A DNA stretch of 64,000 nt, taken from the NCBI GenBank assembly GCA_036172245.1, contig JAYWIR010000039.1:744001-808000 (forward strand), in the 5' to 3' direction. This DNA is from Raillietiella orientalis (lineage: Eukaryota). The translations under genes and the position numbers were made by a program. Of the stretch, positions 3,134 through 64,000 are shown piece after piece. Below the pieces are notes generated by a model. That model saw nothing but the letters and a program-made list of their open reading frames with translations, ran no database searches and had not been told where the DNA came from. Each line of letters opens with the position of its first letter. Positions within the stretch are counted from its first letter, which is position 1.

Positions 3134-4276
3134 GTGACTTTACGAACCACTGCTAAAAAAGCGCATGCTGGCTCTAATAGCGCTAGCGACCTGTAGTTGC
3201 GTTGTCCGAGTTTATATCGCTTGCTTCAGTCCGGGATTCCGTCGATTCACCTCTGCATTTGCAAGGTCAAACTTTCCTGAAGGTGATCGGAACGCTTTCG
3301 TTTGCCGATCCAACTTTTTGCGGAAGTTGTGGCTGGGCTTTGCAGATGGCGCGCTCCGGTGCATCTGTACATGGCTGCTGGCTTCTCAGTACACTGCCGC
3401 CAGGAGTTCCTCTGCACCGCCCTCTTGTTCTTCTCTGTTTGACCCTGTTCGCAGGTGGATTCAGAACCTGAAGGAACAGTTCCGCCCCGTCTTCCTTCTT
3501 TAACCCGCTCATAGTGGACATGAGCGGCCATCATCTATTGCCTTCATCAAAGAATCAGCGTTCTTGATGCATTTGCAGTGTCCTATGTAAACTTGCGTGC
3601 GATGTTGGTTCCATGACAGTGCTGTGAGTGATGCGACAAACGCAGGGACATCTTCAGAGAATACCATCACCCAAAATGTACTTAAGAAATTGTTTTTTGC
3701 TTTTTTTGTATCCTTTTACCTTTCCTCGATAAGAACAGAGGCGTGAGTACTCGATCAGGAGCGGTATACGGATGACAGCCATCGCGATGTGATGGTTCAC
3801 ACGAATCTGCGTTCGCGGATGCGATCTGTCAAAGCTGCCGCTTCCGTAGGAATGAATCCTAGACGATGATTGAGAAAAGGATGAGATGCTGTGGGCGAGC
3901 TCGCGCTTGCATTTTCACCATCCGAGCGCTCTGACCCCTCTGTCATCACCGACAATTACGCGATCGTTCCTTTTTGCTGGCGTCCGGCAGCTGTTTGTTT
4001 TTTGGGGTGGGTGGGGATGTGATTAGCGTGTGCACCAACGAGCAGCTTTGCCTATCTGGTTCGTCCTGAAGTTTCGTTCTCCGCGGCGAACTCCCCAGCG
4101 CTTGACGAAGGGGTTGTTAGGTCAGGTGGTGCTGGCGACACGCCGAAGGACACGGCTCCTTTCCATGCGCTTCTGGTGTGCCTGTTGGTTCCCAAAACAA
4201 ATGCAATCTGATTGCCAATCACTCTGCCGTTCCTCCTGACAACCGTGATGTGAAATGGTTTATGGTTTTCCCATAG

Positions 4277-6278: not shown

Positions 6279-6413
6279 TGAGGACTCTTGCAGGGATTTT
6301 CACAATGATTTTGAAACGACACAGTTGACCACAGGGTCCAGGGAGGTTCAAGCTCCACGCGCCACGTTAGAAATTCTGTTCGATGCTTGGCAGCAGAGAA
6401 AGCAAACCAGAAG
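6279..6413 (+). repeat. 135-bp direct repeat, copy 1
   Basis: Matches 7647-7781 with about 8 mismatches and no indels (tgaggactcttg...gcaaaccagaag). Confidence 0.95.
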
Positions 6414-7646: not shown

Positions 7647-7781
7647 TGAGGACTCTTGAAGGGATTTTTACGATGATTTTGAAACGACACAGTTGACCAC
7701 AGGGTCCAGGGAGGTTCAAGCTCCAGGTGCCACGTTAGAAATTCTGTTCGATGCTTGGCAACAGAGATCGCAAACCAGAAG
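7647..7781 (+). repeat. 135-bp direct repeat, copy 2
   Basis: Matches 6279-6413 at an offset of 1368 bp. Confidence 0.95.
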
Positions 7782-9000: not shown

Positions 9001-9590
9001 GCCATCGCTACTGAACTTTTCGCCGGGTCCTCATCCCCTCCCTAAGGCTGGAGAGAGAGAGAGAGAGACAGGACGGTGCTGCTGCCGTTTGTCCTCTGGC
9101 GACCCAGAATAGCATCGAGTCGGAACCGGGTCGGCCGGCTTGCACGTCATGCCATTCGGGAGTACATCGGAGCACGTTGCGCCTTTGGCGATCGAGGCTC
9201 AGAGGCTAGGGACCAGTTCCTAGGGGCCGCCAATCTCCCTGGACCATCGCGGATTCTCGGCGTCAAACTCTCACGAGCCCCCCTTCCCCGTGCTTTGCTC
9301 AGAGAGCCAAGCACGGAGAAGGGGAATCCAAGGTCCGAGAGGTCAGTGCCCACGAGGGAGGAACGAAGGAGGATAGAAGTATAAGGAGGGAGAATGAAGG
9401 GAAGGGTCTTAGTGACTGAGAGGTCCTCCCTTCCCCCTTGGGCGCTTTCTCCAAAACCCTGTGCGTTCCGCGTCTAGCCTCCGCACGCTCATGAGCCAAC
9501 ACGATCCGGAGGAAAGAGTCCCTGGCGGTCACCGCGCGACCGAGCCTTCGCCTCCGGTTTTCCTCCTGCCGATGACGCTTCTCTTTCGAG

Positions 9591-11353
9591 GGTCCTTCTC
9601 CGTGCTGGCCATCGGGATTGACCGCTACTGCGCCGTGACCTGCCCGCTGCACTACACGATGAAGATCACGAGGAAGCGGAGCAACATCATGATCTCCACG
9701 TCCTGGGTCTTCTCGTTCTGCCTGTCCGTCACCCCTCTGTTCGTGGTGCTAGCGAGCAGCATCTCCGGCTCCGACCCCGACCTCCTGCAGTGCGACAGCT
9801 CCCGCATGTCCCTGTGGAGGGGCGCGCCCCTGTTCCTCGCCTTCTACACGTCCACTGTCTTCGTCCTGGGGTTCTGCGTCCCCTTCGTGTTTCTGGTGGC
9901 CATCTACCTATCCATGTTCAAGGCCGCCCAGCAGAACAAGTCCCGGACGAGGAAGACCAGCTCCTCGGTTGGCATGAGCGAGCTCTTCGGATTCAACTCG
10001 AAGCTGAGCCTGACCGAAGGGGGCGGCCTCGTCCCCGGCGTGACCTGTTCCAAGACGGTGGTGGTGAACCGGCGCTTCTCGAGCGGGTGGGCGAGCTCCT
10101 CCTACTTCCTGGAGGAGATCAAGGGTCTGACGACCACATTCCTCGTGATCGGCTCCTACATGATCAGCTGGCTGCCCTTCTTCGTCATCGAGGCTTGCGA
10201 GATCGGCTTCTACACCGTCTCTGTCCCGGCCCACGCCCAGTTCCTCGCTATGGTCTTCCAGTTCAGCAGCAGCATCATCTCGCCCCTCGTCTACGTGTTC
10301 CGCAACAAGTCCCTGCGCTTTGAGACCAAGAGGCAAGTCTTCTTCTGGAGGAAGCGCCTCTCGGACAAGAGGACGTTCATCCCGAACCAGTCCTGCGGCT
10401 CCCTCATCTCCGAGACCATCATCGTGAAGAGGAGCTACGTCAGGGATCTCAGCTCCGCGGACCTCAGGAAGTGCGAGTCCTGGCGGGCCAGGTGCAGCGA
10501 CGCCGGCGGAGACCCCTGCGAGCCTCCCAAGGACGGTGTCATGCCCGCCGAACCCGGGCCCAGGTTCCCCCTCCGCTGCCTGGACGGTCGCACCTCGGTG
10601 TCGTCTTCGGACGGCCAGATCATCGTGACGAAGGGCATGGCTCGGGAACGGACCGAGCAGCTGTCCGTGGAGACCGCGGAGAGTCCCTCCGAGGCCACCG
10701 CGGCGGTCGAGGGCGTCGTCTCCCGGAGGAAGCTCGTCCGCCAGTACTCCGTGGTCGAGTACCTCGAGGGAACCTGCAGCGTGACCTGCGTGTGCTGCTC
10801 GGAGCCTGCCGCCAAGCGACCCAGGGAGCCGGCCAAGCCGCCGCAGCCTCCTCGCGCTCCGCGGCAGAAGAGCAGCTACCGCATCCTCACCAACGAGCCC
10901 AGCTTCGACAAGGACAGTTCCGATGCGGCCCCGGAGGGCTCTGAGGAAGGAGGGGAGGCCACCACAGACCCGGAGGGCAACCGCCAGGACGGCCTTTGCC
11001 GCCTCGGCTTCCCGGTCATTCAGATCCACGGCGCCGAGGACGACGACCTCCAGGTGGCTGCGGCTGCAGCTGCGGCCGCAGCCGCGGCGGCGTGCGGCGC
11101 CAAGAAGAAGATCCAGTCCCCGGAGATGCTGGCCCCCGTGCGGACGGTGCTGGCGATCAGCCTCCCGGACAAGCTGGAGGCCATCATGTCCTCCGAGGAC
11201 GCGACCCCTCTTCGGGCGCTCCAAGGACGCGATGCGTGCCACTCCTACTTCTCCCTGAACATCAATGTGGCCTGCAGGGGGCTGGACCTCCCCCTGAAGG
11301 ACCGCCTCTGTGGCAGCCCCGCGCTCGGCACCAAGGCGTACCGCCAGCTCTGA
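9591..11353 (+). CDS. Class A (rhodopsin-like) GPCR, GPR161-like orphan receptor; terminal coding exon (TM3 end to TM7 plus long C-tail)
   Basis: ORF 9461-11353 contains IDRY (DRY motif), TM4 SWVFSF, TM5 FCVPFVFLVAIYLSMFKAA, TM6 SWLPFF and TM7 SPLVYVFRNK, with strong GC3 bias. A pyrimidine-rich acceptor ctctttcgag ends at 9590 and its phase matches the upstream donor at 4426. The GPR161-like call is by resemblance only. Confidence 0.9.
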
Positions 11354-15329: not shown

Positions 15330-16520
15330 CAAAAACAAGGCAGTCGGATGCAGTGAACGATGCAACTCACAGCAGCTAAGATACTTGCAGAATCCTCTCG
15401 CACAAATAGGAGGAATGGGAGAGGCTTGCTTCCTTATGCGGTCCCTTGCAAACAGTTGCACTCACCCCTTTCAACCACAGCATTCATCGAAGATCTCCTT
15501 CACGCTCAGACTGCAGAGCTTCTTTCTGCTTTCTATCACTTCCGGAAACGTGGCTACCTGCTCTTGATGACGAGTCGACGCATTCCTCCTCCTCCTCTTC
15601 TTCTTTCAGCTTACCTTAATGATGCTCGCAGACATCCTGCGAGAATTGCACCCTTCCCATCTCTTCAACGTGGAGCCGTTCATTCCCTGACCCTTGCTGT
15701 CCGTTCCCTTTGATCCGTCCTCGTCGTAAGGCTGGGAAACGACTTCGTGAGGGAAAACGACTGCTCATCTCATGCTTCCAGGTCAACTGGAAATTCTGCC
15801 TGTTGGGTTTTGAGTTTCTCTAATGTCTCTGGCAGTTCGCTGGGTTCACCGTTCATGGGAACCTACGACTGGCGCTCCTGCTGTTGCGGCATTTTTTAAT
15901 TAGCGGACAGGAGAGCAGTCCTGGATTTTTGCTGTCCTTCTGCCTTGCATCAAGCAGGACCTTCGAAAAGGACTGAGCAACCAAAGACCGGTACTTGCCC
16001 CCTCTCCCTGGAGCAACAGGTCAGGTGTGGCTTCGGCTTCGAAGCCGCTTCGGATTGGAGGTCATCAGTTCCCAGTGCTTCGTGGGTCACCGGTCTTGCT
16101 ATGCGGCGCGCGTTGCTATGCGTCCCCACATGGTCTGGCTGCTTCACATCCGTTGGAAATGTGACCCTGCGATTCTTCCACACAGGCACTTCCACACGAT
16201 CTCTGATGAGCGATGCCCGCAACACAGAAAGTTGGGTCGCGCGCCTCCTGAATCCGTCGGTAATCTGAGAGGTAAAAGAATACAAAATGCCCTCAACCAA
16301 TCCGCCTTCCAACTCAGCATATGACCTTTTCTTGATCCGGGTGTTTCCCAATAAGGCATGTCCATGTCTTGCGATCGTGTCCAGGCTGACGACGACTTGC
16401 TTCCTCCTTCCGGTCTCCTTCTAGTTCTCTCTCTTTGAAGGAGACTGGAAGCTTCCCTGACTGCCGTCCAGACGCTCCTGGTGTCGCCGCAGTCTCCCCT
16501 CCCATTTTCCGTTGATCGCA
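15330..16520 (-). mobile_element. Decayed pogo/Tigger-like transposase (CENP-B HTH plus DDE_1)
   Basis: Minus-strand motifs in order: TRIKKRSYAELEGGL (CENP-B kR.r..y.elE.aL), LRASLIRDR, NGEPSE...LEKLK...FPVDLEA*DEQ (GE.as / iFNaDET), LVIKSR*PRF (lvIGks..PRcf), EIFDEC, FLLFVRED (LLllDN). Multiple stops. Confidence 0.55.
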
Positions 16521-17328
16521 TCGGGCCTGAAGTCTTCTAGATCTTCATCCACTGCAGATTCCTGCAGCTCCTTCCTTACCACTTACCTTTTTTGCGAATT
16601 CTGCACGGCCGACAAAGCCGCCGTGCAGAGTGAAGTTGCCCCACACCGGCGTAAAGTTAGGTAGTATAGGTCAGGAGATGCACCTGACACCCGGCATGCA
16701 CTCAGAGTGCAGTGCGACCGTTCAATCTCCATAACGAATAGGAGGCAGGCGTCCCTGGATCACGGCTTCTTTCGGGAACAGAACTGTTCATCGGAGGAGC
16801 GAGAGAAGGGCTGCCGCTTCCACGGGTAACTCGGCAGGAGGTAGCCAGACTGGTGGGATGTGTCCTACCGGCACCAGACGAACTTCCCACTTGTCTCGCT
16901 CCAGGGAACTTTCTGGATGAGCCTTCGATCCCTCCTCCTCGCCCGAGAGGAACGTTTGAGGTAGCTAGTGGCTCAGGCAGAGTGGTTCCGTAGGCAGCGA
17001 TATGCACGATAAGACATATTATGAAAGCACCGGCTTCCCTGTGGAAGCTAAGCATGGAGAGAGATGGGATTCTCGACGCGTTGCTTAGGATCCACTAGCA
17101 AGGAATGCAGCAATCTATTTGGAGAGAATAAGAAAGAGCAGTGGATCGCAGAGACAACCAGAGTGTGAAGGATTCCCTACGGGTTGCCTTCTAACTTGGA
17201 TGAAGAGTTACACATATGCTCTGGTGGCGTTCACGGTGTTTTAAGAGCCTTCTGAAACCCCGTGTGGAGTCAGCGCCGAGCCTCTCCGATGCCCCTCAGG
17301 GAAGAGAACGGACAGTTCTTGTGTTTTT

Positions 17329-17918
17329 ACCGGTTGCGCCGTGGCGTTTCTTCTTTACAAAATAGAAAGAAACAAAACAAACAGACGGGAGTCGGTGGAA
17401 CTGGTTCCCCACCAAGTCCGGCCATCACCTGAGGAACCCCAGCGAGGTCTACATAACCTAGGGGGTTATGGGATAAGAAAAGAAAAGACGAAAAAAAAAA
17501 GCAGTTGGTTAAATTGGGGGGAGGGGGGGGAGGAAAGGATTACATCGCAAGATGTGGAGTCTTTTGCATTCTTTGAAGGATGTTGTCCAGCTCCTCTTGA
17601 TGTCCTGACAGGAGGTCCATCTCGCCCCGAACCGTAGGAATCGAATGGACAAAAGGATGGCTCCCTGCCGTGTTGTCCTCTCTCGGAGTCGTTCCTGGAG
17701 GCGTAGGCCCCCAGCAGGCAGCACAGCGCTGCGGCGCGGCAGCTATGGAGACCAGGCACAAATAGGTCCCTCAGAATGTTCACTGGACTGTCCACAGGGA
17801 AAGGAAGGGACGCGGGGAAACTTTCCCACAGTGTCCTCAGGGCAACACGCCCAGGTGGAGGAAGTAAAGGACTTTTTCTCCCTGCATCTGGTTCAGTTGG
17901 CACTGACGCTCCCTCCTT
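17329..17918 (-). mobile_element. L1/Tx1-like non-LTR element copy A, 5'-truncated 3' end
   Basis: VALRTLW...LFVPG...AALCCLLG and EELDNILQRMQ (homologous to copies B, C, D, H), then a T-rich 3' UTR and the terminal motif aagaaacgccacggcgcaaccggt (17352-17329). Confidence 0.6.
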
Positions 17919-17922
17919 GTCA

Positions 17923-18900
17923 CCCGGGTGCGCCGGGGCGTTTATTACAAACTATTCGGGAACAGAGTTCCCGGACAAAGGGGAAAACAAGAGACGAAGG
18001 GGGTGGGATCCCCGACACGCAGGTCGGTATGCCGAAAGTCCGGAACGGGAGGGAGGGGACCACAAATACACTACTATAAAAAAATAAAAAGAAAAATATG
18101 GAGGGGAGGGTACAGGGGTCTTTGGTTCGGCCGTTCCTTCCTTTCAGAACCGGCGATGGATGCCGGCGATCTCTCTCCTCACGCTCTCTGGTAGGTGGGC
18201 CCACTCGGCAGCCGACGACATGCTTGCGCTTGCTAATCCGGTGGGCTGACGAACGATGGCCAGCTTCTCCAACTCTCGGTGGGCCTTGTCGATGGCGCGG
18301 GTGCAACACACGGTTGCAACGACAGCACCCAAAGACAGGCCGCCTGGCGTGAAGAAGCGGCGCATCAAGTCCCTCGCGGCGTCCCCCTGGTGCAGGAGAG
18401 CTGAGGCCAGCCTCCGCCAAAGTCCTTGGAGGGCACCGCAGTCCAAAAGCAGGTGCGGGAGCGTTTCCACTTCCTGACGCTCCCTCTCGTCCAGTGGTGG
18501 TGGCGCGCGTTATGCGGGAGTGCCCAGCGCAACGTCAGCAGCGCCGACTGCTGCGTTGTGAGGGGGGAGGGATGGTTTCCTCGCAATCACCGGCGTATAT
18601 CCAGCTCTTCCGGAACGATGTTGAAGAGTTCATCCTAGCAAACTAGTCCTCGGGGAAAAGTCACTTTTGTTGAGGCATCAGCGAGCTTGAAGGAGCGGTT
18701 CGAACTCAAACGGTTCTTGAGCGAGCTCTTCGCTTGCAGCCTTGAACTTCTTTGAGAGAAGTTCTCTCCCCTCCATGTGGTATGGCGAGGCCATGAGCTG
18801 TTGGCATGGCTCACGCAGACCGCCCTCTTGTTGCGTCCTTCGTTTCCGGAAGTAAAGCACGCATTCGTTGCATTCGTCTTCTGCAAAAAGGGAGTAGGTT
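17923..18900 (-). mobile_element. L1/Tx1-like non-LTR element copy B, 5'-truncated 3' end
   Basis: LRWALPHNARHHHWTRG plus ETLPHLLLDC (zf-RVT/CCHC-type), FFTPGG...VCCTRA...REIAGIHRRF*, a T-rich UTR, and the terminal aataaacgccccggcgcacccggg (17946-17923). Confidence 0.7.
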
Positions 18901-18904
18901 TGAA

Positions 18905-21900
18905 CGCGGTTACTCCGGGACGTTTATTTTGCAACAAACAAACAAAATAAACCACAAGTCTGAGACAACAGTGTCAAAAAACAAAAAAACAACAACGGAA
19001 AAAAAAAGTTCATCAGGGATGAGCGCCGGCAAGCAGGCCAACTTCCAAAAAGTTGGAAACGGAAGGAGAGGACAGTAAATAAATTAAAAAAGAGGGGAGG
19101 GTGAGGACTGGGAGCTTTAGTGTAAGACGTTCCTCTATTTCTAGAAGCGACTCTGGATGGTGGCGATCTCCCTGGAGACTTCTTATTGCAATCTCCCTCG
19201 CTGCTGCTATGCTGGTCGCCTCTCTTCGCCGCGAACTTGCTTCTCAGACATGGTAGACTGTCACTACAGCGCGGATGCAGCAGAATGTTGCGATCACAGC
19301 ACCTTTCTCGAGTCCGCCACAGGTGAAGAAGCTCCAGAGGAATGGTCTACTTCTTTCCGTGTACTTCCTGTACGCCTCTCAGGGAAATTGCCTCACAGAG
19401 AAATGCAGGGAGTTTTCTCGCTGCATTTCTCTGTGGTTTGTCTTCTCCGTGACGAAACGCACCTGATCGCGGCAACACGAAGAGCAAGAAAGGGGACAAT
19501 AAGCGGATTCGCTTGCGGAAACGTCCGCAGCCTCTTCCATACTTCGGAGGAATTCTGAACAGTCATTCCTCTTTCGTTCCTCTCTTTCCGGAAGGGCACC
19601 ACTTGAAGAAGTGGCAGTCACCAAGGGTGTTTCCTTTTGGGTAGGAACCCAACTGTTGTCAAGCTCTAGGAGCACAAAGTTTCTGGATTTCCAGGCGCAT
19701 CGCATGTTGGGTCAAGGAGTTACTCTCCAACCTGTCACGCGAGGGGGGAACGGCCATCTTGAAAGGACACGTCTAGGGAGCGCGTCTGGAGCCAGATACA
19801 TACACGTAAGAGCTTGGACGGACGTCGACTTATCACGGATGAAGATCAAATTAAAGGAATAAATCCCAGGATCGATACCTGAAAGAGAAGTACATAGAAC
19901 CTCCGGAACTATCGGTTCTCTAAGACGAGAACAGCACCATGGACCAAAGAAGAAAACGAGCATGGTGAGGAAGTGGTGGAAAAGCTCTGCCTTCGTTGCT
20001 GCCACACTTCCGCAAGACTTTTTGGAAGAATCTCCAAGCCCCAAACGCCAGCTAGGAAACGAGCAGGAGATCGATCTTGCCGTGGGTTCCAGACGAAGAA
20101 TGAAACGCTACCCACACATCTTTAATCATTATGGAGTCAATGCTTGAATCGTTCGCCTCTGCAGCAGGAGGAGCCATGCCTTGATCTACCACGTCCAGGA
20201 GACGGACCACGGAACGTGGAAGTTCCCACCCAGCAACCAAGTGATACCCGGAGCGGAGTTCTCTGAGACCTGATCTCATCCCGGGAAAACGGAAACGCGC
20301 GTCGTCCTTCCGCCTCCAAATAAGCGGCCAATAACCTCCAATAACCCGCCCTATCGAGTAAGGAGTAAGCGCTCTCTTGCAAGACGACTGACGAGATGAA
20401 TTCGGAATTGGAGAGGGAAGAATGAGATCCACAGGCAAGCAAGAAATAGATAACTGGGTGGTGCAGTGTGTGAGGAGAGACGGCACTGGCTAGACAAGGA
20501 ATCCAGAAATCTGTGAATCCTTCCTTCACAACAGAGGAAAGCTTCCGTGTCTGACAGTTTAAGATGATTTTTACAGCCCCCTTCTGGCTCAAAAACACGC
20601 CCCTCTAGCAACCAGATGAATTTCAGTTCTCGCATGCCGCTGGTCTGTATTCCCAAGCGACGATTGCCTGAGGCTCTTTCCTGTTGTCTGATCACAGTGA
20701 TAGACATAGAGTGACGCGCGAGGGAATTTCAATACGCCCCATGGATACACGGCAACTCTCAAACGAGAGCGGACAGGAAAATAGTTGCCTTCTTCCCCTG
20801 AGGCGGGTGTGTTCAATGTTGCAGCAACATCGCTGGCTCGCCTGATGAGTCGTGGGAAATCACCTCTTGGTGGGAAAAGACCATGGAAGTCTGGGTGTCC
20901 ACCCTGCAAGTGACCTCAGAAAAAAACTTCGTTTTTTGAAGAATCTATGCAGCGTTCTCCTGAAAGTACTGTTGAAAGATACCATCAAGTGGTTCAGACT
21001 GGCCACCGCATTTCATGCTGCAAATTGTCCCTTCTTTCGCCGTCTCCCTTTAGGCCTGTTGGTAAGTAGCGACAGTAGCCAACCAGGAAAGTAGGAGTTC
21101 TGCATTACTTCGGGAGTCACCAAACTCTAAGACGAGGGAGATGGGAGAAGGAGCGAGATGGGCGAGATAGGGCGAGCGAGATGGTGGTCGCCGCCGCTCC
21201 ACGGTCTCAGGCAAAAGCATTGCTCCGGTTCCGATCCCCCGCAGAACGAGTAGTCTCTTCCCTTTGCATGGGCGCTTTGGTTTTCCTCCTCAAGTGGAAG
21301 CATCAGGTGTGCACCCCTTCTACATTTAGGTTTCCGGTGTAAAGAGCGCGTAAAACCTCGTTGCCGGGGGAATTGCACCCCTGAACTGTTCCAAGTGCTG
21401 GATTGGATTGCAGAGCCCTCCGGTAACTGTAGCAAAGGCTGGCTTTACCGCTGCTTGCATCCGGAAGACACGGCGAGAGATGTGCTGTGGGCTTTCGTGT
21501 GGCGAGAAGATGGCGGCGTCGGGTGGCGCACGCGTCATTTTGGCTGCCCGCATCGCCCTGGAGCTACTCCTGCAGCAACGCCCAGTGCTCTAGCCTCCGT
21601 GAGAGCTGTAGCGAGTGCTTCTGGTACACATCTCAAGATTAGTGGATGTTCGACTTTTTGCTTCTGACCACACCCTTTGCCCAATCGAAAATCCTCCGAG
21701 TTCATCGTCGGCCGAGTGCTCAAACCCAAGAAACCCACAGAGAACCCCCCTGCTGCTGCAGACGTTCTTTTGAAAACAAAGTAAGGAGCCAATCCACAGC
21801 ACCTTCTCCCCTTGTTCCCTCGCTCTTCAGCACGCACCGCTGAGTACTCAAAAAGGCGTGAGGCAACTGGATGATTACCTCCTCTTTTCCCTGAGACACG

Positions 21901-23400: not shown

Positions 23401-23699
23401 CTCCACCGACCTTACGTCGATACGACTGCCACAGCGCGAAGGCGGAAGGACAACTGCAGGAAGGCCGGCGGGCGCCGATACTTCCCTACTTCGCCGCCAG
23501 GAGCGTGCCCTCAAGCGAAAGTCGCAGGGCGCTGATCTGTATCCATGGACACAGAAGCGAATCGCGGACTATTCAGAGAAGGCGAAGATCGCTGAGAGCC
23601 GGATGGGGCGCGAAGAGAGGGAAGGCACAGCGTGGGCCGCAGCGGGGAGATCCGCTGGGGCCTAAGCGCGCGGCAGGAGCACTGAAGGCACGTCGGCGA

Positions 23700-26600
23700 A
23701 GCTGCAGCCACGAGTGGGCGATGAGGCGGAGAGGACAGAGAGATACAGCGAAAGGCCACTGGCCTCATCCCATGGGAGGCGATACAAGCCCCATGGGTAA
23801 CCCCCGGCAATAGAAGACCCCAGCAGAAACCGCAGCGTCATCACGAAGACGGCTTCAAGGGAAGACACATGGCTGGAAATACGGAAGGGTGCGCGCGCCG
23901 TCCAACGCTGCACTTTCCTCAGCATGGACGCAGCGGACGCATCCGCGACCAGCTCTTCCACGTGCGAGCGGTCCCAGAAGCACCTGCCAAGAGCCCTCTT
24001 CTTTGCTCAGCGACCATTCTTCAAGGCCTTCCCAAACCGATGACGTACGGGGGGAGTTACCTCGCGTTCAGAGGGCCACCACCAGTTCCAAAGAGTTTCG
24101 CATTCATCGAAGCCCAGCATGCTGAAGAGCGGCACCAAAACGCCTCGAGCAGAACGGAGCTCGGAAAACCCGCTCAAGGCAGACCAACTCGGCAGCCACC
24201 TCAGCAACGCCCCTTCCCTCCGCGTCCCAGCATGCATCTATTCCAGCCGTGGAGCCGTGCCACACGCGGCTGACCCTTGAGGCGACAGCACACCTGACCT
24301 CGCGTAAACCCAAAACACCGGCTTGCCCCGAGACGACTTCGGCTCGACCTCCGACGCTCCTTTCCAATCGTATGGACCACAGAGGACTGCGGCTGACCCC
24401 CCTTTCGCTCATGCCTCGGCAGCCCTGCTCGCAAGCACTTCCCTTTACCGAGAGGCACGCAGCCGGCGAGATGCGCCAGGCGACCCACGAACCTGCTATT
24501 CTTCCCCTGGGATGAGGACAGCCTTGCTGACCTCAGGCGTGCAGTGCAGCCACTCGCTTCCGCGGAGAGGGACAAGATCTTACCCGCATGGCCGCCGCGC
24601 CGGATCATCGAACCGGCCAAGACGACGAGTCATCAGGATCGTCGCTAATATAGCTGCCGAGTGCCATACGTTGGTGCTTTCTCGCTCCCGCACAGGCAGC
24701 CCGACCTCCGTCCCTCGCGAGAACACGCCAGGAAGCAGCCCCAGAGCCTCCGCGTGGCAGCCGGGTTCCCGGAGGGCGCAGGCAGCGCACCGGAGAACGT
24801 CTCTTCGAGTTGCTGGCGATCGTCACGCGAGCTAGAAAAAGAATCTGAAAGGATGCGCTGCACGAGACGGCGCTCTCGCCGGCGGAACGCCGCGCAGCCA
24901 GGCGCACCCGCCGCAGATGCACGCTCCGCAAAGGCGCCTGAAGCTCGCAACCAGCACGTTTCGTCCACGCACACCCCGTCTTCGCTGAGCCGCGTGGCAT
25001 CTTCTCGCCGTGCCCGCGTTACTTCCTCCTGTCTGAGCGCGCGCAGGCGGCGAGGACTCAGCAAACGTGCCACCAACAGTGCCATCTGCTGGAGGCGAGG
25101 CAACGGCCTGTCTCTTGGAGTCTTCGGTCGACTGGGGTCAGGCTGAATGCAGCGGTGAAGCCTGCTATCTGGCTGGCCCACGCCGCGCACCGGTACTGCC
25201 AGGCAACCGGGAAGAACGGCCTCCTGAGAAGCGAATCCTCAGCTTTGGTGGATCCACTGCTAGCCACTCTGCTGATCGATCCTCTTTCTTGCTCTTTTTG
25301 CGTTCTTTTAAGCGAAAGGGCTCCATAGCCCGATTCTCCGCTCGGACGCTCCTGCGAAGCCGAAGCAAGTTCCCGTGGCGAGCTCTCGGCGGTTCGCCTT
25401 CGCAAACGCATTCCCCGCGAAGTGTCTTCGCGTGCCGAAGACATCGAGGAAGCTGAAGGAACGTTCAGCCTCCATCCGGAAGGCCAAGAGGCAGCCTACG
25501 TCCACCTCCATCCTCCCGTGCAGCGTCTGCAGTCTCCGTAGATGGCCAGAAGGCAATAGAGGGGATTCCTGGCCATACGCCTTGACAAATTCCCCTCTCC
25601 ACTCTTCGCTGTCCATAGGATCCGCTGAAGTTCAGGCGCTTTCGATGGAGGGCTCGATCCATGACGCAGCGCGCCACCGACCTGCGCGGCGCTCGAGCGA
25701 AGAAGCGATGCCAAGAGGGACGTTGCCGTTGCCGGTCGGTACAGTTTGGGCGGTGCCTGCCACGCCCCTCCTTGCTCGGACAGTCCCAAAGAGAGCGACG
25801 CCACCTTACGATGGAGGCACTCGGTGACGCATCTGCTTCTACGACGCCATTTTACGGTTTCGCTACCTGCGCCAAGAGCAGTGGTGCTCGTCTGTGTCTC
25901 GAAAAGATCACCGGTCGCGGAGTCATCGCGTACCAGCTGTAGAAGAAGGCCGCTGGAGTGCGTCGCGTCCGGAGGCTGCACATTCGGCGACGAAGACAAG
26001 AGTACTCGAGTGGCGATGCTGGTGGAAGATCCGAGTGCAAGTGTGGAGCTGCAACACCAATCCCTTTGATGCGGGACTCGATTCCCATTTCCGTTCCTTC
26101 GTGTAGAGCCTGTCGAACGCATCCTCTTTATGGCTGTCCTTCCTCGTGCATCTACGCAACAGCGGCCACGCACTGTCGGTCGCTCCACTCTCTCTGCCCA
26201 TGACATCGGACCGCAGCGAAGCAACTCGGGAGGCGAGCTGGCTGGCGCCGTGACCTCTGTAAGAGATTCAAAGCGGAAGCCTCACAGATCGCGGAGAGTA
26301 GCGATGGCGGATTCATGAACCAAGGAGAAGAAACGGGTTTGCTCCCGGCGAGAATTCTCTCTCGCATCAGCTTGAAGATGGAAGCCTCGAGCTGGAGCTG
26401 GTCATCTCGAAGGAGGACTCGATGTGCCGGTGCCAAAGAATCACGGTGACGCGCGCACGTTTGATGGTGCTACGGCGCCAATCTCCTAGAGGCGCGTGCG
26501 GCGTGCACTGCACCCCGAACGAGGAAGCATTCCTTTCGTTCTGCGGGATCCGGAAGGGAAAAAAATCACCGCGTCGTCATGGGTTCCATCAGCTTGACGA

Positions 26601-29600
26601 AGACAACAAAAGTGCAAATCCTAGAAGGTGTGGCGGCGTGCGGGATTTTTCGCTTTTTCCTTTTCTTTTCGGCGGAAGCGGAAGCATCAGATTTCCGAGC
26701 TAAAACTTGGATACGGAGCCGCGCAAACCGTGTCCTTCCTACAATCCTGCGGACAAGGGGGTCGCGTACGCAAGGAAGGCTGCGAAAAGGCTTTCCTCCG
26801 CATTCCCATGGAAACGACGCCTGATAACGAAGGCGCGATTGCATCGGCGATCTCCTCGCCATCTCTCTCGCGCTCCGTCGGATCACCTCGCGTTCCGAAA
26901 CACGCCGATCCGTGTCCGAGTCCACCGTCTTTAACCCGAGCCACGGGTCTCTCGCGCGCGGCAGCACGGCGGAAGCGGCGCAGGAAGTGCCGATGCTGCA
27001 AGAGAGGCAACGGAAGGACGTCCCGAAGTGCCTTTCCAGGACCGCTAGACGCTCGCGGTGCCACCGCAGACTGCGTTTCTTGCGGCAACCGACAGAACCG
27101 CCCCTGGCAGCTGTTACGTCCGTTTCTTCCAAGGCGCTGCAACTGGTCAACTGGCGGCCGCGAAGATTTCCGCCCAAAGGCGCTGCTTTCGGGCTCACAT
27201 GGCTCCACAATATGTGCTCAGCCCGATGGTGTAGACAACCTCGGAAGGGCAGGAGCCAACGAACGGAATCCGCGCAGGAGCAAGCCACGCCTGTGCCCGT
27301 GCTTCTTCCTAGAGTCGTACGGTCCAGTAAACTTGGAGCTGACGCGGCACGAATGTCGCAAACGCAAGAGCAGGTCGCGGTCTTCCTTCGGAACTTCCTG
27401 GATGCAGTTGGCGGTAGGGAAGAGACAGGCGAGGGCGTGGAGCAGCGGTCCCAGCGCATGTGTAACGACGGTACGCAAGCTACATGTTCAGGAAAAGACC
27501 CCCCCTTTCTTTCTGCGGAAAAGGCACGAAGCGGCCGTCGAAGCCGAGCCGCCCGAGTCCCCCACTGCGACCGCGGCAGCAGGCAAAAGAGGGCCGAATA
27601 GGCGGCCGCGGACACGCGGGTCCAAGCGGACTTCAGATGCGGAACGGGATGCGGGGAGATCAAGTCCCGAGTAATGCCAGAGCGGAACCAGCAAGAGCGA
27701 TGGGTGCCTACGGAACGTGGACCTGCCAGCACGACTCATTCAAGAGGTGCCTGAAGTTCTCGGTATAAGGGTCGAACCACAGGCGACCCAAGCAAGAAGC
27801 CGGAAGGCCCGCTGTCTCAACTCTTCACCCGACGTGTGTCCGGCAGTCAAGGAGAACACGCGAGCGGAGTGCATCGGAGCGGACCTTCCTTTCGGTGGCT
27901 GCCCTCGGGGGAGTGTCGGCTGCTGGGAGAGCGGAGGACGCGTGGATCGGAGCGAACGGAAGGGGAAATTCCGAGTGGTTTCCAGGAAAGGCGGGGCGGA
28001 TTCCCAGGGAACGGATCGCGGAACTGGGATTCCCTCACCCTGCGTCTTCGGAGCAGCCAGCCCACTTAAGGAAGCATCGCGTCTTCTGTCCCACACGTCA
28101 TTCGTGAAGGGCCGCCTCCAAGCTGACGGCGGAGAAGCAGATAAGGAACGATGCAGCTCGTGTAGCAGGGTCATCTCGGCCTGAAGCGATTCCCTCCGAT
28201 CCCGATCAAAGTCTGGGTTTCTTTCCGAAACAAGATGACCACGATATGCGGTCCCGAATCGAGACGATCTTGGGTATCCCGAGAGTGGTCGCGTCGTAGT
28301 CCTTCGGTTGTTTAAGGAGCACTAGCAGGAGAGGAGAGCAACGCCCCTTTGAAGCAAGAAGCGGCAGCGCAAGGAAGACGCGAGGCGGTGCAGCCATCCG
28401 ATACTGAGCTCCCTGGGATCCGAGGCGTGCGCACTAGGAACCAGGACCGGTCGAGGAGAAGGGAGTGGGCCGCGCTCGAGGCGAATGGCCAGCGCGGGTT
28501 CGGATAGGGGTGACTCTGACCGCGTGCAGTGCGGCCGAAGGGGAAAATGGTGTGCGGTCTCATTGAAGATGTCGAACGTTCCCCTCACAGGAATCCAGTT
28601 GTCGGGATAGCGTTTCTTCCGAAGGAGTGGATCCGTGTATGCGTCACCGTGATCGGCAAAATCTAGCGCAGGCGTCTGCGTCTGGAGAAGGAAACCGGGA
28701 GGGAGACTCGAGTCCTCTACGAAAAACCCTGTGCAGGTGTGGGAGCCGCTGACAGCGGAGAATCAGCGAGGAAGTTCAACCAGATGCACTGCGGGGGGTT
28801 TCGCATGGCTGCAGCAAAGAAGCAACTGGAAACGGAGAGCTCTGTTCCTCCGGAGAAAGTCAATCCACGATGGAGCATTCCGATGGTAGATGGCGCGGGT
28901 GTGCCGTCGTCGGTTCGCCCATTCTCGCGTTGCGGCGGATTCTTCATCCCTCGGGGATTCCACTCTGACGTGAGGTCCAACTTTACGAGAGGGCATGCCC
29001 GGATACGCATGTCCATCGCTGCGTGGTTGCGGGTTGGTGGGATGGCTGCCTTGGAAACCGATTGGCACTCCCGGCGGGACCCATCCTGAAACCGTACCGT
29101 ACCCTATCCTAAACCTTAACGTGGGATGGCGGCGTGTGCAGTGGGATGAAGATTTTCGGGCTTTTCAGCCGGATTTTCCCAGCCAGAGAGTAGGGGAATT
29201 CGTGCAACTAGGAGATTCGCATTCACCCAAGCGTTGTGGAACGCAGAAGTTTCGCTGACGGCGTCCCACACTGGCGGAACGGCCTGCGGTGCTGTCTGGC
29301 GCCGTTGTGCGTTGTCTTGCGCATCCCCTGCAATGAAAGCACAGTTGGGCACAAGAAGATGTGAGGCAAAGGTTTCCATATCGACGAAACGCTTCTTCCG
29401 GGGGCCGCTGCCGCTTTCGAGAGCTCCCCTGAACAGCCCTTCGCATGTCCGCGAAACCTCGCGAAAGCCCTCTGCTGGTAGGTCGGCTGCTCTTCTCTGG
29501 CCAGCGCAAGGTCGCTTGAATTTTTTCCTGATACTGCACTGGGGTCTCCCGTGCAATGCGCGCCGGCACCACTGGACGAGGGGAAACGCATCGCCGATCT

Positions 29601-30163
29601 GTGCCAGGTGAGGGGAGGAGACATTCCCCACCTCATAGTGCAGTGCGTTGCCCTCCGGGACTTGTGGGAACTTCCGCACCCCATGAACAATCCCGGTGAC
29701 TCTTGAGGCCCCTCTTCGTGCGAGACGCCATGACGCCCGCAGCCGTAATCGCAGCGCTGTGCTGCGTGCGCCGTGTCGTCGAGGCGAACTGCGACGCCGA
29801 GAGAAGCGGCAGCGACGGGGGGCTGTCCTGCACGCCATCACTTTCCTGCAGATAGCTTTGACGTGGCCCCACCTGGAAAGGGAGAAGTTGGAGCTCGCCG
29901 ACATCCTTCAACGGATGCAGAGGCCTCACCAGCCACGAAATGTGATCCCTTCCTTTCCTCCAATCTAATTTTTTTTCTTTCTTTTTCTTGTTGTTTGCTA
30001 TAGTTTGTTTTCATTTTCTATTTTTGTTTCATCCCCCCTTTCCGTCGTGTACGTGATGGACCTCGACGGCTCTCCCTCTTTTTCCTGAAGTAATAATTGC
30101 AATCGGTGAGGCTCTTGGCTCCATCGATTCCTGCAAGAGGATTAAACGCCCAGGCGCACCCGG
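23700..30163 (+). mobile_element. L1/Tx1-like non-LTR element copy D, near full length, decayed
   Basis: GQAEC..CYLAG (ORF1 knuckle-like, ~25140), RILSF...FLLFLRSF (EN start), LVNWRP (RT1), EVLGI (RT7), HWGLPCNARRHHWTRGNASPICAR..ETFPHLIVQCVALRDLW, AALCCVR, KLELADILQRMQ. A T-rich UTR (29960-30030) precedes the 3' motif attaaacgcccaggcgcacccgg at 30141-30163. Confidence 0.6.
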
Positions 30164-30164
30164 A

Positions 30165-32200
30165 TGTGAAATCACGGCGCTCGCCATCAGCCCGCACTGA
30201 GCAAAGGAGCGCCGACGCAGCAAGTCCGGAGGGGGGGGGTACGAAGGTGGACGAAGCGCCGGAGAGAGTCGCTGCCACATGTTCTCCAGGGAGCTGCAGT
30301 TCCAACAGGAGGTGGGGGAACGCTTGGTTCGCCCCGCACACCTGGAACAGTTCAGGAAGGCAACTCCCCCGGAAGCCTGGTGTCTGCGCTCATTGCACCG
30401 GGATGCTCAGAGAAGAAACGCAAAGCATCCCGCTCCTAATGGAACGGGAACTCGGAAGTGTCCGTACACAGGCAAAGGACCACGAGTTGTGCGAGGCAGG
30501 GCACTCCACCGGAGCAGTCCGTTCGTCGGGAAACGAGGTGTGGCGACGTGTACCGACTCGCTCCTCCTGCAGCGAAGCCGCAGTTTCTCGACTCTTGTAA
30601 TTTTGCAGGGCAGCTCTCACTACGCCGGTTGGCTGCTGCCATCGACTGCCCTCAGGGAAAGCAGTGCTGTGCCAAGGGGTGTGACGGCTATCCGGGACCG
30701 CTGCGTCCACTTCTGCTGGAGATCTGCCAGCGGCTCGCATAGGAGTTTCCTCAGTGGGCGCCGTATTTCTCTGCGCCCATTTCCAAAGTGGAAACCCATG
30801 ACTCCAGTGCCGTTAGACGTTCCCGTTCTGGGGATGGAAGGGATTCCAGGGATGAGCTACCAGAAGTGAGGACAGATGGCTCAGGGGGAGCCAAATCCAG
30901 TCCTCTCAAGTGGGTTGCGTGGCGGCAGCGGAAAAGTCCTGCGTTTCCAGAGCATCGCCGGAGAATGTGGCGTGCCGGAGCCCACCAGTGAAAAGTTCAC
31001 ACCTTTCCACCAAAAGTCGCAACTGCACCTGCAGTCCGATCTTGTGGATGGTCAGGCCATCATCCTGGAGCTGCGCCACGTAATCTTTCAGTCGGATCGA
31101 GTTGCTCGTTCGTCTGCTCTTCTCTGCTGGAGAGCTCAAGATCTCTCGAAAACCTGGAAATAGTTTTCTGCGCTTCCGGCGAATTGGAGCGGGTATGCGG
31201 GATGTGGCTGGCCACAACAGGGTCACGATGCGTGCACTCGTGATGCGAACTGCTCCTTCGGGTGTCGTGCAGACTCTGGAAGGACTCGCATCCGTTTTCT
31301 GTGCGAGCTCTTTGGACGAGATGATGCGGTCATGTAACTGGCTGCTCCTCGAAGCTGCCATTCTCTTCCTCGTCCTAGAAAAGCAGCGCGCAAAGCTGAA
31401 AGGAAGTCCACTTTGTTTCCTCGGCCTCGGCGAAAGCAGCCGAATGGTGTCTCCGGATGCAGACGGGCATCTGCATCTTATTCCTTTTTCATCTTCGTGT
31501 CGATTGCCATCGTTGAGCATGCCCGATTGGGTTGATGCTCGCGCATCGGAGTGCCGGCATGCGACAGTCTGGTACCCGGCTTAAGACTTTTGCATTTTGT
31601 CATCTCCAAGATGTCGTTTCGTCTTCCGAGGGCTGCAAACTCGAAGAGGGAAGCTTTCCTTTCGGAAGCACGGGATTAGGGGAAACTTGTTCGGAAGGGA
31701 CGCCCGACGAATCCGCGTCCATTCGAGATGCCTGCATCGTGCGCACGAGATTTTTCCAGGGCGGCGCCAGACGCGGAACGCGCTGCAAGTCCCGAAGGCA
31801 CTTGGCGTTGGATCTCCGACGGCTCGGGCGGAGAGGGAGGTCTGGAGGCGGACGCTCCGAAAACAGTTTGCGAGCGTTCAGGAAGACACCGGCAATGCAC
31901 AACTTGCCAGGATGCACCCCGTTTTCCCGCATGCCTGCGAAACCTGCTCCCAGGCAGCGAAACGCGACCGCGCTGCCATGTGCCCCCGGACGCCAGCGGA
32001 GCTGCATGCGCTCACCGCTTCGCGAACGATATGTTGTCGATCCACTCGCTCTTCCCCATGCAAGGACACGAATCAGACCGATCTGCAGCACGGCATCCTC
32101 CGATTAATCTGTTGAATCTTCTGGATTCCACGTCTATCCGGGGCGGCGTCTCCGGGCGCGTACGCGAAATCGGCGGGCGGGAAACTGCAAAAAACGGGCG
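30165..32200 (+). mobile_element. Non-LTR fragment G (APE endonuclease-like region and downstream) directly after copy D
   Basis: KRGVAT (GVail), EKFTPFH..QSDLV (fT...sRiD), FQSDRV (SDH), TWK*FSALP (WKlN.slL), RFFQG (kyFf). Decayed; ends approximate. Confidence 0.4.
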
Positions 32201-32959
32201 GTGGAACAGTTCCACGAGGGGCGTTTGACCACTTTTGCAGCAAAAAAAGGCAGAGTGGAAAGAGACGTCATGAAAGTTGCCTATTCCCGTGCGAGCAACA
32301 CGTTCCTGTTTATAGTTGGTTCGCATAAAACTTCAATTCAGAAACAGCATCTGTTTTCTCCAGGACGCCGTCATGCTCGCAACACTTGCGCATATCTTAT
32401 CCGCAGAAAAATTTTGCCTTATCTACGAAACCTATGATTTATAAAGTTTTCTTAGTTGTCTAGTGTCACTTCTGCTGGGTTTGTTCTAGAATGACTGTTT
32501 ACACGGTGAAACTTTTTGCAGACGTTGTACAGTTTCCCGAATTCCATCTCCCAGAAAGCTGCGCAACGTTTAAGGTAAAGTATATTCCTTGCTTCCTGCG
32601 GTGTTGCGCGCATCCGGAGTGAAACTTGCATTCGCCTGCGTTCGTTTGTGCGCGGAAAAAGGAAAGAAAGAAAGATGCAAAGGGAGGAAGAAAGAAAGAA
32701 ACCGCACCGAGTTTTTTGCCTTGCGGTGCACGGAAGCGGCCTGCAAATCTGTGAAACCTTTGCGTTCCGTGCCAGCGGAAAATTATAAAAAAAATAAAAA
32801 TAAAAAATTCAAGGAAGAAACACCGGGGGCGAACCGGTAACCAAGGAAACGCAACAATGAACGAAATCGTTATTTTTACGAACGTATGGTTACTTTGGTT
32901 ACCCTCGGGGGAATGAACTACCGGAATAATTGACTACTGACTTTCAGACAAAGCAAGGG

Positions 32960-36900: not shown

Positions 36901-38165
36901 GTGAGGCCTCCCGACGGAGTCGAAAGGTTCTTCACCACTCCTTGAAACCAAACAAGAACAACGACAAAGCTGGAAGGAAGTCGTCATGATGAGCATTCTG
37001 CTTCATGTGGCTTCCAACCACACCACCGATCCACAAGAGACGACTAAAAGCGCACGCGCGCCGAGGCGAAGAACGGCCTGGGAAACGTAATTTGGCACAG
37101 AAGGGCGTGCGGAAACCACCTTCTTCGAGGGAACCACGTGATGTGAAGTGAGACAGAAGAGCTTTTGAGAACATGGGCAAAGCTCGAGGAAGGTTCCGTG
37201 ATGGAACATGAGGCGAAATTGGGAACGAAGGAAGAAGACGCAATGTGAACAACGATCAGCGACGTTTGGATGGAAGGCTACGGAAGAGACTGCTTTAAAC
37301 TTGGGAGACGCAGAGCCTTTCGTATCTTCCAAATCCAGTGCGCAAGAGCAGAACTGAGAGAGCCGACCCGTTACGATGTCCGACAGAAGCTCTTTTCCGT
37401 GCTTCTCATTAGGAAATGATGAGGGGTTCTTTCCGATTTTCTTCAGACTACTTTGCTTGCCCAGTCCGCACAAAGAGCCCACTCCCGCTTGTGTCCCAAA
37501 GCAAAAAACAAGCTGCAGAGGAAGCAAGCACAGGGAAAGATCCGGTGAACAGCTGCGTCGCTTGTTGGTGCCGAGGGAATCCATGGAAATGCGTGCCCAG
37601 CTTTTGGATGGCGGGAAAAGTCGAGTCGCAGAACTTCAGCAGCTTTAGGAATTCAGGGGCGGCTCAACAGGTGCAGCCGGTGGGCCCCAAGCATCGTCTT
37701 CGGGTGGCGCTGCGAAGAGAGGAGTTGTCGCGCTTTCGGGAAGCGTGAAGCGAGTTCCAAAAAAACAGATGCCAGTCCGTTGCTTTGGGAGAGGAAGTGA
37801 GTGCACGTCTACCTCAGGTCAACACTGGCCGGCCGACTACCTCATGAGATCCTTCACAGACTGCGGAGCAGCCTCCGAGGCGAGTGAGCACCCTCCCTCC
37901 GCCGCCACCGGGGACCACGATCACGGCGAGGGTTTCGGTGGTCGTCAAGCCCGCAGAAAGGGGTGAGAAGGAGATGCCCACCAAGCCCGTCGGTCTCTGT
38001 TGTCGCGCTCCCCATGGGGAGGACGGCTACGCGTCCCTCCACTCCTCAGCATGCCCGGTCACCCCTCCCACGGGGGCGCTGCCACGAGGTGTGGAACGGG
38101 ACACTGGGTGGTCGGGCGTTTCTCCTCCGCAAGCTGGCGGATGACTGGTGGGCGCGGGAGCTTCC
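34000..38165 (-). mobile_element. Non-LTR copy E: 5' region, ORF1-like and APE endonuclease relic (no RT seen; may be interrupted near 35.2-36.2 kb)
   Basis: 5' region is homologous to F, C and D. ORF1-like VPSRNLPR...LLSHFTSRG...WIGG; EN-like DGEARLL, PILMAHSDF (GDFN), GRLRRFFLVS (RlDrffvS), STDHSII (SDH). Confidence 0.45.
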
Positions 38166-38526
38166 GGATGCCAGGACGCCAACTGCTCGCACCGAAGGTC
38201 TGACCCGGCTATGCGTGCGCGGACGAAGCAGCGACGCCCGCCTCCTCCCCTTCCGGTGAGCAACACGCGGCGGCGCTCTCCCTGCGCCGCTGTTTCCAGG
38301 ATACCACGGAGCAGCGCCTCTCGTCCCTCCGGAAACAGCCGCAGGTCGAAGGGCAGGACGTGGACGGACCTCCTCTGCCCGCTGTCCAAGTGCAGCGCGT
38401 GGCAGACGCGTCGCTGCTCCGTGCCGTTCCACGCCTTGGGGCGGCGCCCCGCAGGAGGGGCGACCGAGCGTGTCGAGGAGTGAGCAGAACGCGGTGCTGT
38501 CCTCCCCATGGGGAGCACAACGACAA
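37998..38526. repeat. Imperfect inverted repeat (arms ~37998-38100 and ~38422-38526)
   Basis: Both arms carry the 14-bp palindrome ctccccatggggag (38008-38021 and 38502-38515) and align over ~105 bp at roughly 70% identity; weaker homology extends outward to about 37810 and 38700. Confidence 0.9.
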
Positions 38527-45548: not shown

Positions 45549-45700
45549 ACCTAAATCACCATTGTCTACCCTAACCTTGCCTATAACTAACCTGATCTAA
45601 TCTAATCTACCCTACCGTAACCTTATCCTTATCCAAACTAACCTGACCTACCCTACCCTACCCTAACCTTGCCCCTAGCCAACCTAATGTAACCTAATCT
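45549..45700 (+). repeat. Degenerate (CCTAA)n / TTAGG-like pentamer tract
   Basis: Run of cctaa/ctaac/cctac/tctaa pentamers, e.g. ctaacctgacctaccctaccctaccctaacctt. Confidence 0.8.
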
Positions 45701-59372: not shown

Positions 59373-59778
59373 AAGGGTGAGCCACTCAAGACTGGCCCTC
59401 CTGACCGCCTCGCTACTCTTCGCGGCGAAGCCACACTCGAAATCGCGCCGGTTGCAAATGGCCCACCCTGTGTTTGTAGGTTGCATTGTTGGGCGTCATG
59501 CTGACCGCGCGCTCTGACGTCACGCGGGGAAGCCTGAATCCAAATGGGGCCGGTTGCAAGTGGCCCACCCTGTATTTATAGGTTGCATTGTTGGGTTCCA
59601 GGCTAATCGAGCACTCTGACGTAACACCGCGAAACCGCACGCGAGGAGGGCTGGTTGAAAGTAGCCCACCCTGTATTTTGAGACTGCATTGTTCGGCGGC
59701 ATGCCTGATCTCGTGCGGTGACGTCACTCGGGAAAGTTACACTCGGAAAGGACCTGTTTGAAGTCTCCCCACCCTGTA
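59373..59778. repeat. Tandem array of ~102-bp units each containing a Tc1/mariner-like TIR end, preceded by one inverted TIR copy
   Basis: Core gccggttgcaagtggcccaccctgta starts at 59447, 59549, 59650 and 59752. An inverted copy aagggtgagccactcaagactggcc lies at 59373-59397. Confidence 0.85.
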
Positions 59779-59859
59779 CAATCATGAGCGGACACATTCT
59801 CGGCGTCCAACTCAGCCATCTTGCGAGCTTGGGATGCACTCTCACATTTCCTGCGATCC

Positions 59860-63515: not shown

Positions 63516-63521
63516 TCACAG

Positions 63522-64000
63522 CTGAGCATGGCGGGGCGTTTGTTAAAATTCAAAGCAAACTCATACATTGTGGTGGGACACGTGGCCCTGCCACACTCCG
63601 TTTGTCTGCAGGGCCGCCGGGCCGCAGACCGATGAGGTCCGCCTCGGAAGAGGAGGGGAGGGAGAAACAAAATAAAAATAAATGAAAACACTGTGGGGAG
63701 CCAGGAAGGGATCACAGTCCACTGGAGGGATTCCTCTGCATCCTTTCCAGGATGTCGGCTAGGTCGGTTCTAATTGCATCCAGGTGGGGCCGTCTTCCTG
63801 CCATCTGCAGGAAGCAAGGTGCGTACTCGATGGCGTCCCTTTCGCTCGCTCCTGCCTCAACGTCGCTCCAGGCCTCCACAGTCCCGCGGATGCAGCAAAG
63901 AGCCTCTGATGCTGCGGCTGGAGTGCGAAGAGGACTTTTACAAGGTCCCTGGGGTTGCCAAGCGTTGTCCGTATGGTCGTCCCAGCGTGCCTCCACAGGA
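63522..64000 (-). mobile_element. L1/Tx1-like copy H, 3' end (continues beyond the window)
   Basis: EALCCIRG...RTDLADILERMQ, then tgtgatcccttcct (also in copy D), a T-rich tract, and the 3' motif aacaaacgccccgccatgctcag (63544-63522). Confidence 0.65.

Follow-up and report, generated by a model that had tools for sequence, protein, structure and literature searches.

R2 and R1 are long interspersed nuclear elements (LINEs) that both target ribosomal DNA (rDNA), R2 with a restriction-like endonuclease, and these rDNA-specific elements have target sequence at the 5′ end of their RNA, precise full-length 5′ junctions and tandem insertion at one site. Here we describe a stack of three LINE 3′ ends, each closed by the same GC-rich motif, in 64,000 nt of DNA from Raillietiella orientalis (assembly GCA_036172245.1, contig JAYWIR010000039.1, positions 744,001 to 808,000; this whole stretch is hereafter the window), the elements of which differ from R2 and R1 in having an APE endonuclease, target-site duplications (TSDs) of 11–17 bp and LINEs as targets. 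Transposons are targeted by LINEs of the Tx1 clade: according to the accessible text of Kojima (2015; PMC4494074), Tx1 inserts in Tx1D, the crocodilian Tx1-Mar and SINEU in Mariner-N4_AMi, Tx1-8_Crp and Tx1-4_AMi in long terminal repeat (LTR) elements and Tx1-9_AMi in Harbingers. The same text treats a family as target-specific when >20 % of its flanks are of one type, and the targets that it names for the clade are DNA transposons, LTR elements, microsatellites and RNA genes, with no LINEs among them.

LINEs that insert into LINE copies are represented by Zepp (Coccomyxa) and ZeppL-1_cRei (Chlamydomonas), L1-type elements forming clusters of mostly 3′ fragments, as set out in the accessible part of Craig et al. 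(2021; PMC8226300). Finally, the monocot LINE1-1_ZM group, a stringent L1, has a conserved 3′-terminal ∼45 nt with a hairpin that is common to otherwise diverged LINEs (Ohshima, 2012; PMC3472496, accessible text). Fixed-position targeting of transposons with tandem insertion (Tx1 clade), self-nesting (Zepp) and conserved L1 tails (monocots) are therefore already known.

Anatomy of the stack

The explanation that we favour, to which we assign as a whole a probability of about 0.8, is that the pieces in the window are 5′-truncated members of a single, deeply diverged clade of L1/Tx1-like LINEs with two ORFs (open reading frames) and an APE endonuclease, and that the stack at 17324–19375 is an ordinary nest and not a targeted array, made by a same-orientation, off-target insertion of one copy (B) into an older one (C), with an unrelated copy (A) ∼175 bp away. 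Its parts, including the untranslated regions (UTRs), are as follows.

18896..19375, minus strand: copy A, family A (L1/Tx1-like LINE), a 5′-truncated, decayed 3′ fragment with ORF2 end and UTR, placed by homology to relatives
18903..18928, minus strand: 3′-terminal motif of A, 1 mismatch to the pattern; relatives end in the same variant
18722..18895, no strand: spacer between A and C, ∼175 bp, no detectable LINE homology
18710..18721, minus strand: weak candidate 5′ TSD of C, 12 bp with 2 mismatches to 17323-17312, where C homology stops
18474..18709, minus strand: copy C, 5′ part, covering the C-terminal region of ORF2; homology detectable from 18687 on, final 13 bp being the 5′ TSD copy of B
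18474..18486, minus strand: 5′ copy of the 13-bp TSD of B, exact match to 17915-17903
17916..18473, minus strand: copy B, family B, a 558-bp 5′-truncated insertion within C in the same orientation, delimited by comparison with locus L036
17921..17946, minus strand: 3′-terminal motif of B, AATAAA followed by a 5-bp GC stem and a 5-nt loop, exact match
17903..17915, minus strand: 3′ copy of the 13-bp TSD of B, exact match to 18486-18474
17324..17915, minus strand: copy C, 3′ part, with the remaining ORF2, UTR and decayed motif (17352-17327), 67–74 % to relatives

An earlier, sequence-only reading had described three same-orientation LINE 3′ ends here, and indeed each of the three minus-strand copies has a T-rich UTR and the motif (at 18928-18903, 17946-17921 and 17352-17327), with mismatches over 17 scored positions numbering 1 in A, 0 in B and 3 in C. 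Copy B is 92.7 % identical to a near-full-length B copy in L036, and 88 % identical at the amino acid level to residues 1095–1203 of the L036 ORF2. As a perfect 13-bp TSD brackets B, and C is continuous across it in relatives (six of nine C-like loci align on both sides), B is an insertion inside C, where it lies in mid-ORF2, ∼570 bp from the tail of C. Copy A is 72–75 % identical to nine fetched relatives over 19335–18896, with translated homology reaching 19375, and the DNA upstream of it scores at shuffle level. Shuffle-level scores were likewise obtained for 18896–18690, which contains the spacer, against five C-like loci (a single protein-level score of 39 compared with a shuffle maximum of 36), the neighbouring part of C scoring far above shuffles in four of these five. 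With B inside C and a spacer between A and C, the copies are not directly head-to-tail, as had been proposed, and no junction in the stack joins the 5′ end of one element to the tail of another. Nesting of A in C was considered and rejected, as neither the spacer nor the DNA upstream of A has homology to C-like or A-like relatives.

The window copy of B is atypical for its family, both in its same-sense nesting and in a TSD unlike the usual B start; it sits at a GAGGG-type site, closer to the sites of family F2 than to those of B itself. A Pfam scan of 30 window ORFs returned no retroelement domain, because the window copies are decayed.

The elements and their shared 3′ tail

The make-up of the clade is visible in L036, where an uninterrupted ORF2 of 1203 codons is preceded by a long ORF in which two CCHC-like knuckles were identified by eye; this putative ORF1 has no Pfam match. 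Profiles PF03372 (endonuclease, EN) and PF00078 (reverse transcriptase, RT) were found above cut-off in families B and D, and PF13966 (zf-RVT) in D at an E-value of 5.6e-5, below the Pfam cut-off. Human L1 EN and its LTX/LR1 entries are the best solved-structure matches of the endonuclease, and the nearest database proteins are only 21–31 % identical. In a quick RT tree of 66 rows, from which labelled Tx1/L1 references were absent, B and D share a single long branch (2.38) at an unresolved fork; the label 'L1/Tx1-like' is thus to be read as justified without implying Tx1-clade membership. A trait of the L1/Tx1 group, 5′ truncation with variable TSDs of about 10–20 bp, is present: the exact TSDs measure 11–17 bp, and 27 short copies of family B range in length from 71 to 1061.

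The motif itself is real. The 23-mer of the sequence-only reading has three window matches at ≤ 3 mismatches compared with none in 100 shuffles, and in the genome-wide collection which that reading had proposed, a 20-nt core gave 322 exact matches in 210 Mb, its reversed control giving none. Our sample consisted of 92 of these 322 matches, the first listed, on contigs 1–11, and the sampled ends fell into 15 UTR clusters. In 36 of the 92, an exact TSD of 11–17 bp starts 4–9 nt after the motif core, with TSD sequences that differ between sites; the TSD search covered 1.5 kb, and many of the remaining ends are longer than that. In two TSD-bracketed insertions, just 22 and 38 nt precede the motif. 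Since TSDs begin after the motif and insertions as short as these exist, the motif travels inside the element and marks the point at which copying starts. Of the two meanings originally offered for it, a duplicated target site must be dropped, given that the TSDs begin after it and vary and that empty targets of family B contain no motif; the other, a structured 3′ end that is re-targeted, holds insofar as the motif is the RNA terminus, with no support for re-targeting of the motif itself. The absence of a poly(A) tail was borne out, with an A8 run within 25 nt in only three of the 92 ends, two of these three runs being part of the TSD.

The motif follows within 600 nt (≤ 3 mismatches) after 88 of 109 distinct ORF2 ends compared with none of 400 shuffles, in a set that is biased in that most of its loci were fetched by the motif. 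In the families examined, the terminus lies ∼200 nt past the ORF2 stop and comprises ∼30 nt: AATAAA, CCCGG-N5-CCGGG and a few A's, with no poly(A). Across 33 distinct ends the mean column identity is 81 % over 32 nt, the stem sequence being nearly fixed and the loop variable; stem pairing is possible in 82 % of cells compared with 23–48 % for slid partners, and folding prediction for the terminal 81 nt of window copy B gives the stem (z = -3.07). The elements thus lack the 3′ poly(A) of relaxed (mammalian-type) L1s, and share with stringent-type LINEs a 3′-terminal sequence conserved across families. By analogy with the latter, the ORF2 protein may recognize the shared tail. The likeness to the monocot LINE1-1_ZM group is limited: there the stem varies with compensatory changes (Ohshima, 2012; PMC3472496, accessible text), whereas here it is nearly fixed, no such changes were seen in the 33 ends and the host is animal-like. 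A role of the motif as a guide complementary to its target, suggested by the resemblance of its reverse complement to endonuclease 'RGV' codons, was also considered and rejected, as native endonuclease sequences differ there; alignment of the motif with three of them is poor, and the resemblance is due to chance.

Further motif copies had been noted elsewhere in the window, two of which stood up: one at 30141-30166 (plus strand, 2 mismatches) and a decayed one at 63544-63519 (minus strand, 4 mismatches), the latter supported by an ORF2 end ∼200 nt upstream. A third, at 32815-32838, is background, with 5 mismatches over the 17 scored positions, as at 20 other window positions, an A-rich rather than T-rich upstream side and no LINE homology. 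The elements concerned are listed below; no convincing TSD was found for the copy at 30144 or that at 63519.

29500..30172, plus strand: 3′ fragment of family F4 with motif at 30141-30166, inserted antisense at the preferred site of F4; junction as in other F4 loci
30167..31097, minus strand: host LINE ORF2 fragment ending at the F4 junction, ∼aa 829–1147 in B numbering, found by tblastn; junction codon as in other F4 loci
63519..63998, minus strand: 3′ end of another related LINE with decayed motif (63544-63519), identified by homology

The region from 23565 to 32863, which includes the F4 junction, has an inverted near-identical copy (98.7–99.9 %) ∼106 kb away at G000:C39:653647-661761. This copy is without window positions 24778–25955, its borders show no obvious terminal repeats, and it represents either a recent duplication or an assembly artefact.

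Antisense landing sites in sister families

Target specificity, which the sequence-only reading had tied to the motif, is real at the level of the genome, with the difference that sister LINE families supply the targets, at fixed antisense positions: three families (B, D and F4) repeatedly hit an exact antisense site in the ORF2 of a sister family. For B, this is one antisense nucleotide in the endonuclease gene of family X, at G-R-L codons, where 11 of 60 sampled ends lie (two of them an identical duplicate pair). The B-at-X junction pattern has 38 matches in the genome and the X-site pattern 206; under random insertion, the ∼244 such positions in 2 × 210 Mb would be expected to receive ∼0.00004 of 60 ends. 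Of 20 X sites sampled, 19 were empty, and these held no motif. The distinct 5′ ends of B at this site, beyond which the host continues, correspond to lengths of ∼840, 890, 1070, 1650, 1920, 4140 and 5700 bp and to full length, and because these ends are distinct and the host continues beyond them, the insertions are independent (at least eight truncation points). Family B has a second preferred site, which it enters antisense within another family's 3′ UTR (L004, L077, L094 and L216). Its TSDs mostly start ACA[AG]C, and those at off-target sites have A, C and A at positions 1–3 in 21, 23 and 24 of 27 cases. Where LINE coding sequence is directly adjacent (scored with B and D protein references only), it is antisense in 20 ends and sense in two.

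The other two families have sites of their own. Four of nine D ends lie at WQxSALL codons, with both junctions seen at lengths of 160 and 5475, and the D junction pattern has 21 matches, of which ∼10 of the 20 read have one host sequence and so represent a duplicated composite. For F4, ends were chosen by UTR alone; five of the nine distinct ones share an antisense site near aa 1147, the site that the window copy uses at 30167. Measured against the >20 % rule for recurrent flanks, D (4/9) and F4 (5/9 distinct) lie above the threshold and B is borderline, at 11/60 for the main site and 14/60 with the second included, these samples being small and not cleared of all duplicates. The families have their own short target preferences, with the endonuclease probably setting the choice of site. 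The Tx1 clade likewise prefers, though only in part, a fixed position within another transposon, frequently in the opposite orientation (Kojima, 2015; PMC4494074, accessible text); unlike there, the targets here are coding sites (and one UTR site) of sister LINE families, each family using its own. A literature search by titles and the openings of abstracts, mostly without subscription papers, Repbase reports and supplements, found no site-specific LINE insertion into the ORF2 of a sister LINE.

True head-to-tail pairs do exist, at L036, L038 and L156, and in each the TSD is sandwiched between the two copies, as Kojima's accessible text reports for tandems formed by sequential insertion of SINEU-3 (PMC4494074). 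A second insertion at the regenerated TSD yields such a tandem, with the site re-used and the tail not targeted. Moreover, full-length B starts carry a copy of the X site (L214-L217, L039, L241 and L248): five such starts lie outside the X site and, amid unrelated flanks, open with its sequence in whole or in part, and the full-length copies at the X site, L241 and L248, show a seamless join. The longest target copy matches the X site at 23 of 27 nt and is longer than the 11–17 bp TSD of B. On the simplest reading, transcripts from B copies inside X include the TSD and so bring a target copy to the 5′ end. SINEU-2B_Crp is likewise described as having a 5′ extension that comes from its host element (PMC4494074, accessible text). 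By analogy with R2, the 5′ target copy of B could base-pair with the second-strand overhang, rendering full-length insertion precise.

Three further observations concern the X sites. The first 100 listed cluster near contig ends and in short intervals (for example C1 at 8.0 Mb, C5 at 2.35–2.47 and 3.5 Mb), a pattern like that of heterochromatic or centromeric islands. In the four B copies that occupy the X site at L232, L243, L244 and L245, similar sequence breaks in near B position 3620, reflecting either a further hot spot or one common composite. Lastly, L036 and L041 (G000:C1:8044600-8058849) form a multi-level nest, in which X carries two B insertions at the endonuclease site and one insertion from another family, into which a full-length D has in turn landed antisense.

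Alternatives, further features and meaning

If the motif were instead a target site, in a multicopy gene or repeat, that is duplicated on insertion, with A, B and C a tandem array built on it, one would understand why a single motif follows many unrelated UTRs (15 clusters among 92 ends) and why true tandems occur at other loci. TSD pairs nevertheless enclose the motif, TSDs start after it and vary, the downstream flanks are heterogeneous, empty sites are without it, B is nested in C and no Rfam family matches 16500–20000 at E ≤ 1, so that we give this alternative practically no weight. Self-targeting, in which new copies home to resident tails in the manner of Zepp, could account for the two of 92 ends directly followed by another same-sense copy and for the two of five full-length B 5′ ends preceded by a B 3′ end; yet a TSD is sandwiched in all four of these cases, implying re-use of the original site and not a targeted tail, adjacent LINE coding sequence is predominantly antisense by the counts above, and window copy B lies in mid-ORF2 of C, ∼570 bp from its tail. 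Zepp moreover targets its own copies in tandem arrays, one cluster per chromosome (accessible text of PMC8226300), and ends in poly(A) according to the table of Ohshima (PMC3472496, accessible text), whereas the insertions described here are cross-family and antisense, without poly(A), B copies are mostly scattered and every large contig listed has motif ends along its length. Self-targeting is accordingly very unlikely in our view.

Targeting might also be only apparent, with segmental duplication, hitchhiking or 3′ transduction having multiplied a few nested composites, and with the endonuclease adding a weak 5-nt preference where LINEs are dense. Identical or near-identical composites do exist (L019/L020, L242/L249 and many D junctions), the F4 junction of the window lies in a 9.3-kb duplicated block, and the divergence of B correlates with that of its hosts (55 pairs, r = 0.49). 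We consider this explanation improbable, as at least eight different B 5′ ends share one insertion nucleotide and have host sequence on either side, hosts show greater mean divergence than inserts (76 % compared with 86 %) and different families use different sites. Several observations weigh against the explanation given at the outset. Because many junction copies are near-identical composites, junction counts overstate the number of events, and nine of 18 long B-at-X loci are without host continuation in the fetched 5.6–7 kb, several being common composites. LINE coding sequence is not directly downstream of 45 of the 60 B ends, which are dispersed, so that the specificity of B is partial. 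As for the tail, the hairpin is not predicted in window copies A, C and F4, and compensatory changes were found at 0 of 7 pairs in 33 sequences, with no excess over shuffles. No TSD was found for copy A, for which reason its insertion event is not reconstructable.

Other features of the window include a long ORF at 9416–11353 (plus strand) with a rhodopsin-family 7-transmembrane receptor domain (E-value 1.8e-24), a 135-bp direct repeat (6279–6413 and 7647–7781, 94 % identity, 1368 bp apart) and a young low-copy repeat of 342 bp at 20041–20382, 93 % identical to G000:C7:3327914-3328255. The receptor ORF suggests that the host is an animal. An inverted repeat at 37858–38643, with arms of ∼245 bp at 70 % identity, is possibly a decayed miniature inverted-repeat transposable element. 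A degenerate short tandem repeat of the ACCTA/CCCTA type lies at 45549–45700, and a 102-bp unit is repeated in tandem about four times, in decayed form, at 59421–59780.

The elements are a variant of Tx1-type targeting of transposons, to which the window contributes one site use at 30167, along with genome-wide counts, the second site of B and the target copy at its 5′ end. More tentatively, and at somewhat less than even odds when taken together with the role proposed for that target copy, the sister families may form a guild, with one common RNA tail and diverged endonucleases, each landing antisense at its own conserved codon and disrupting the others, in which the common tail could let families mobilize each other's RNA to each other's sites. 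LINE families here use and disrupt one another as landing pads. Their related APE endonucleases, with differing preferences of 15–25 bp and abundant filled and empty sites, constitute a natural series, with which the gain and switching of LINE endonuclease specificity become directly testable.

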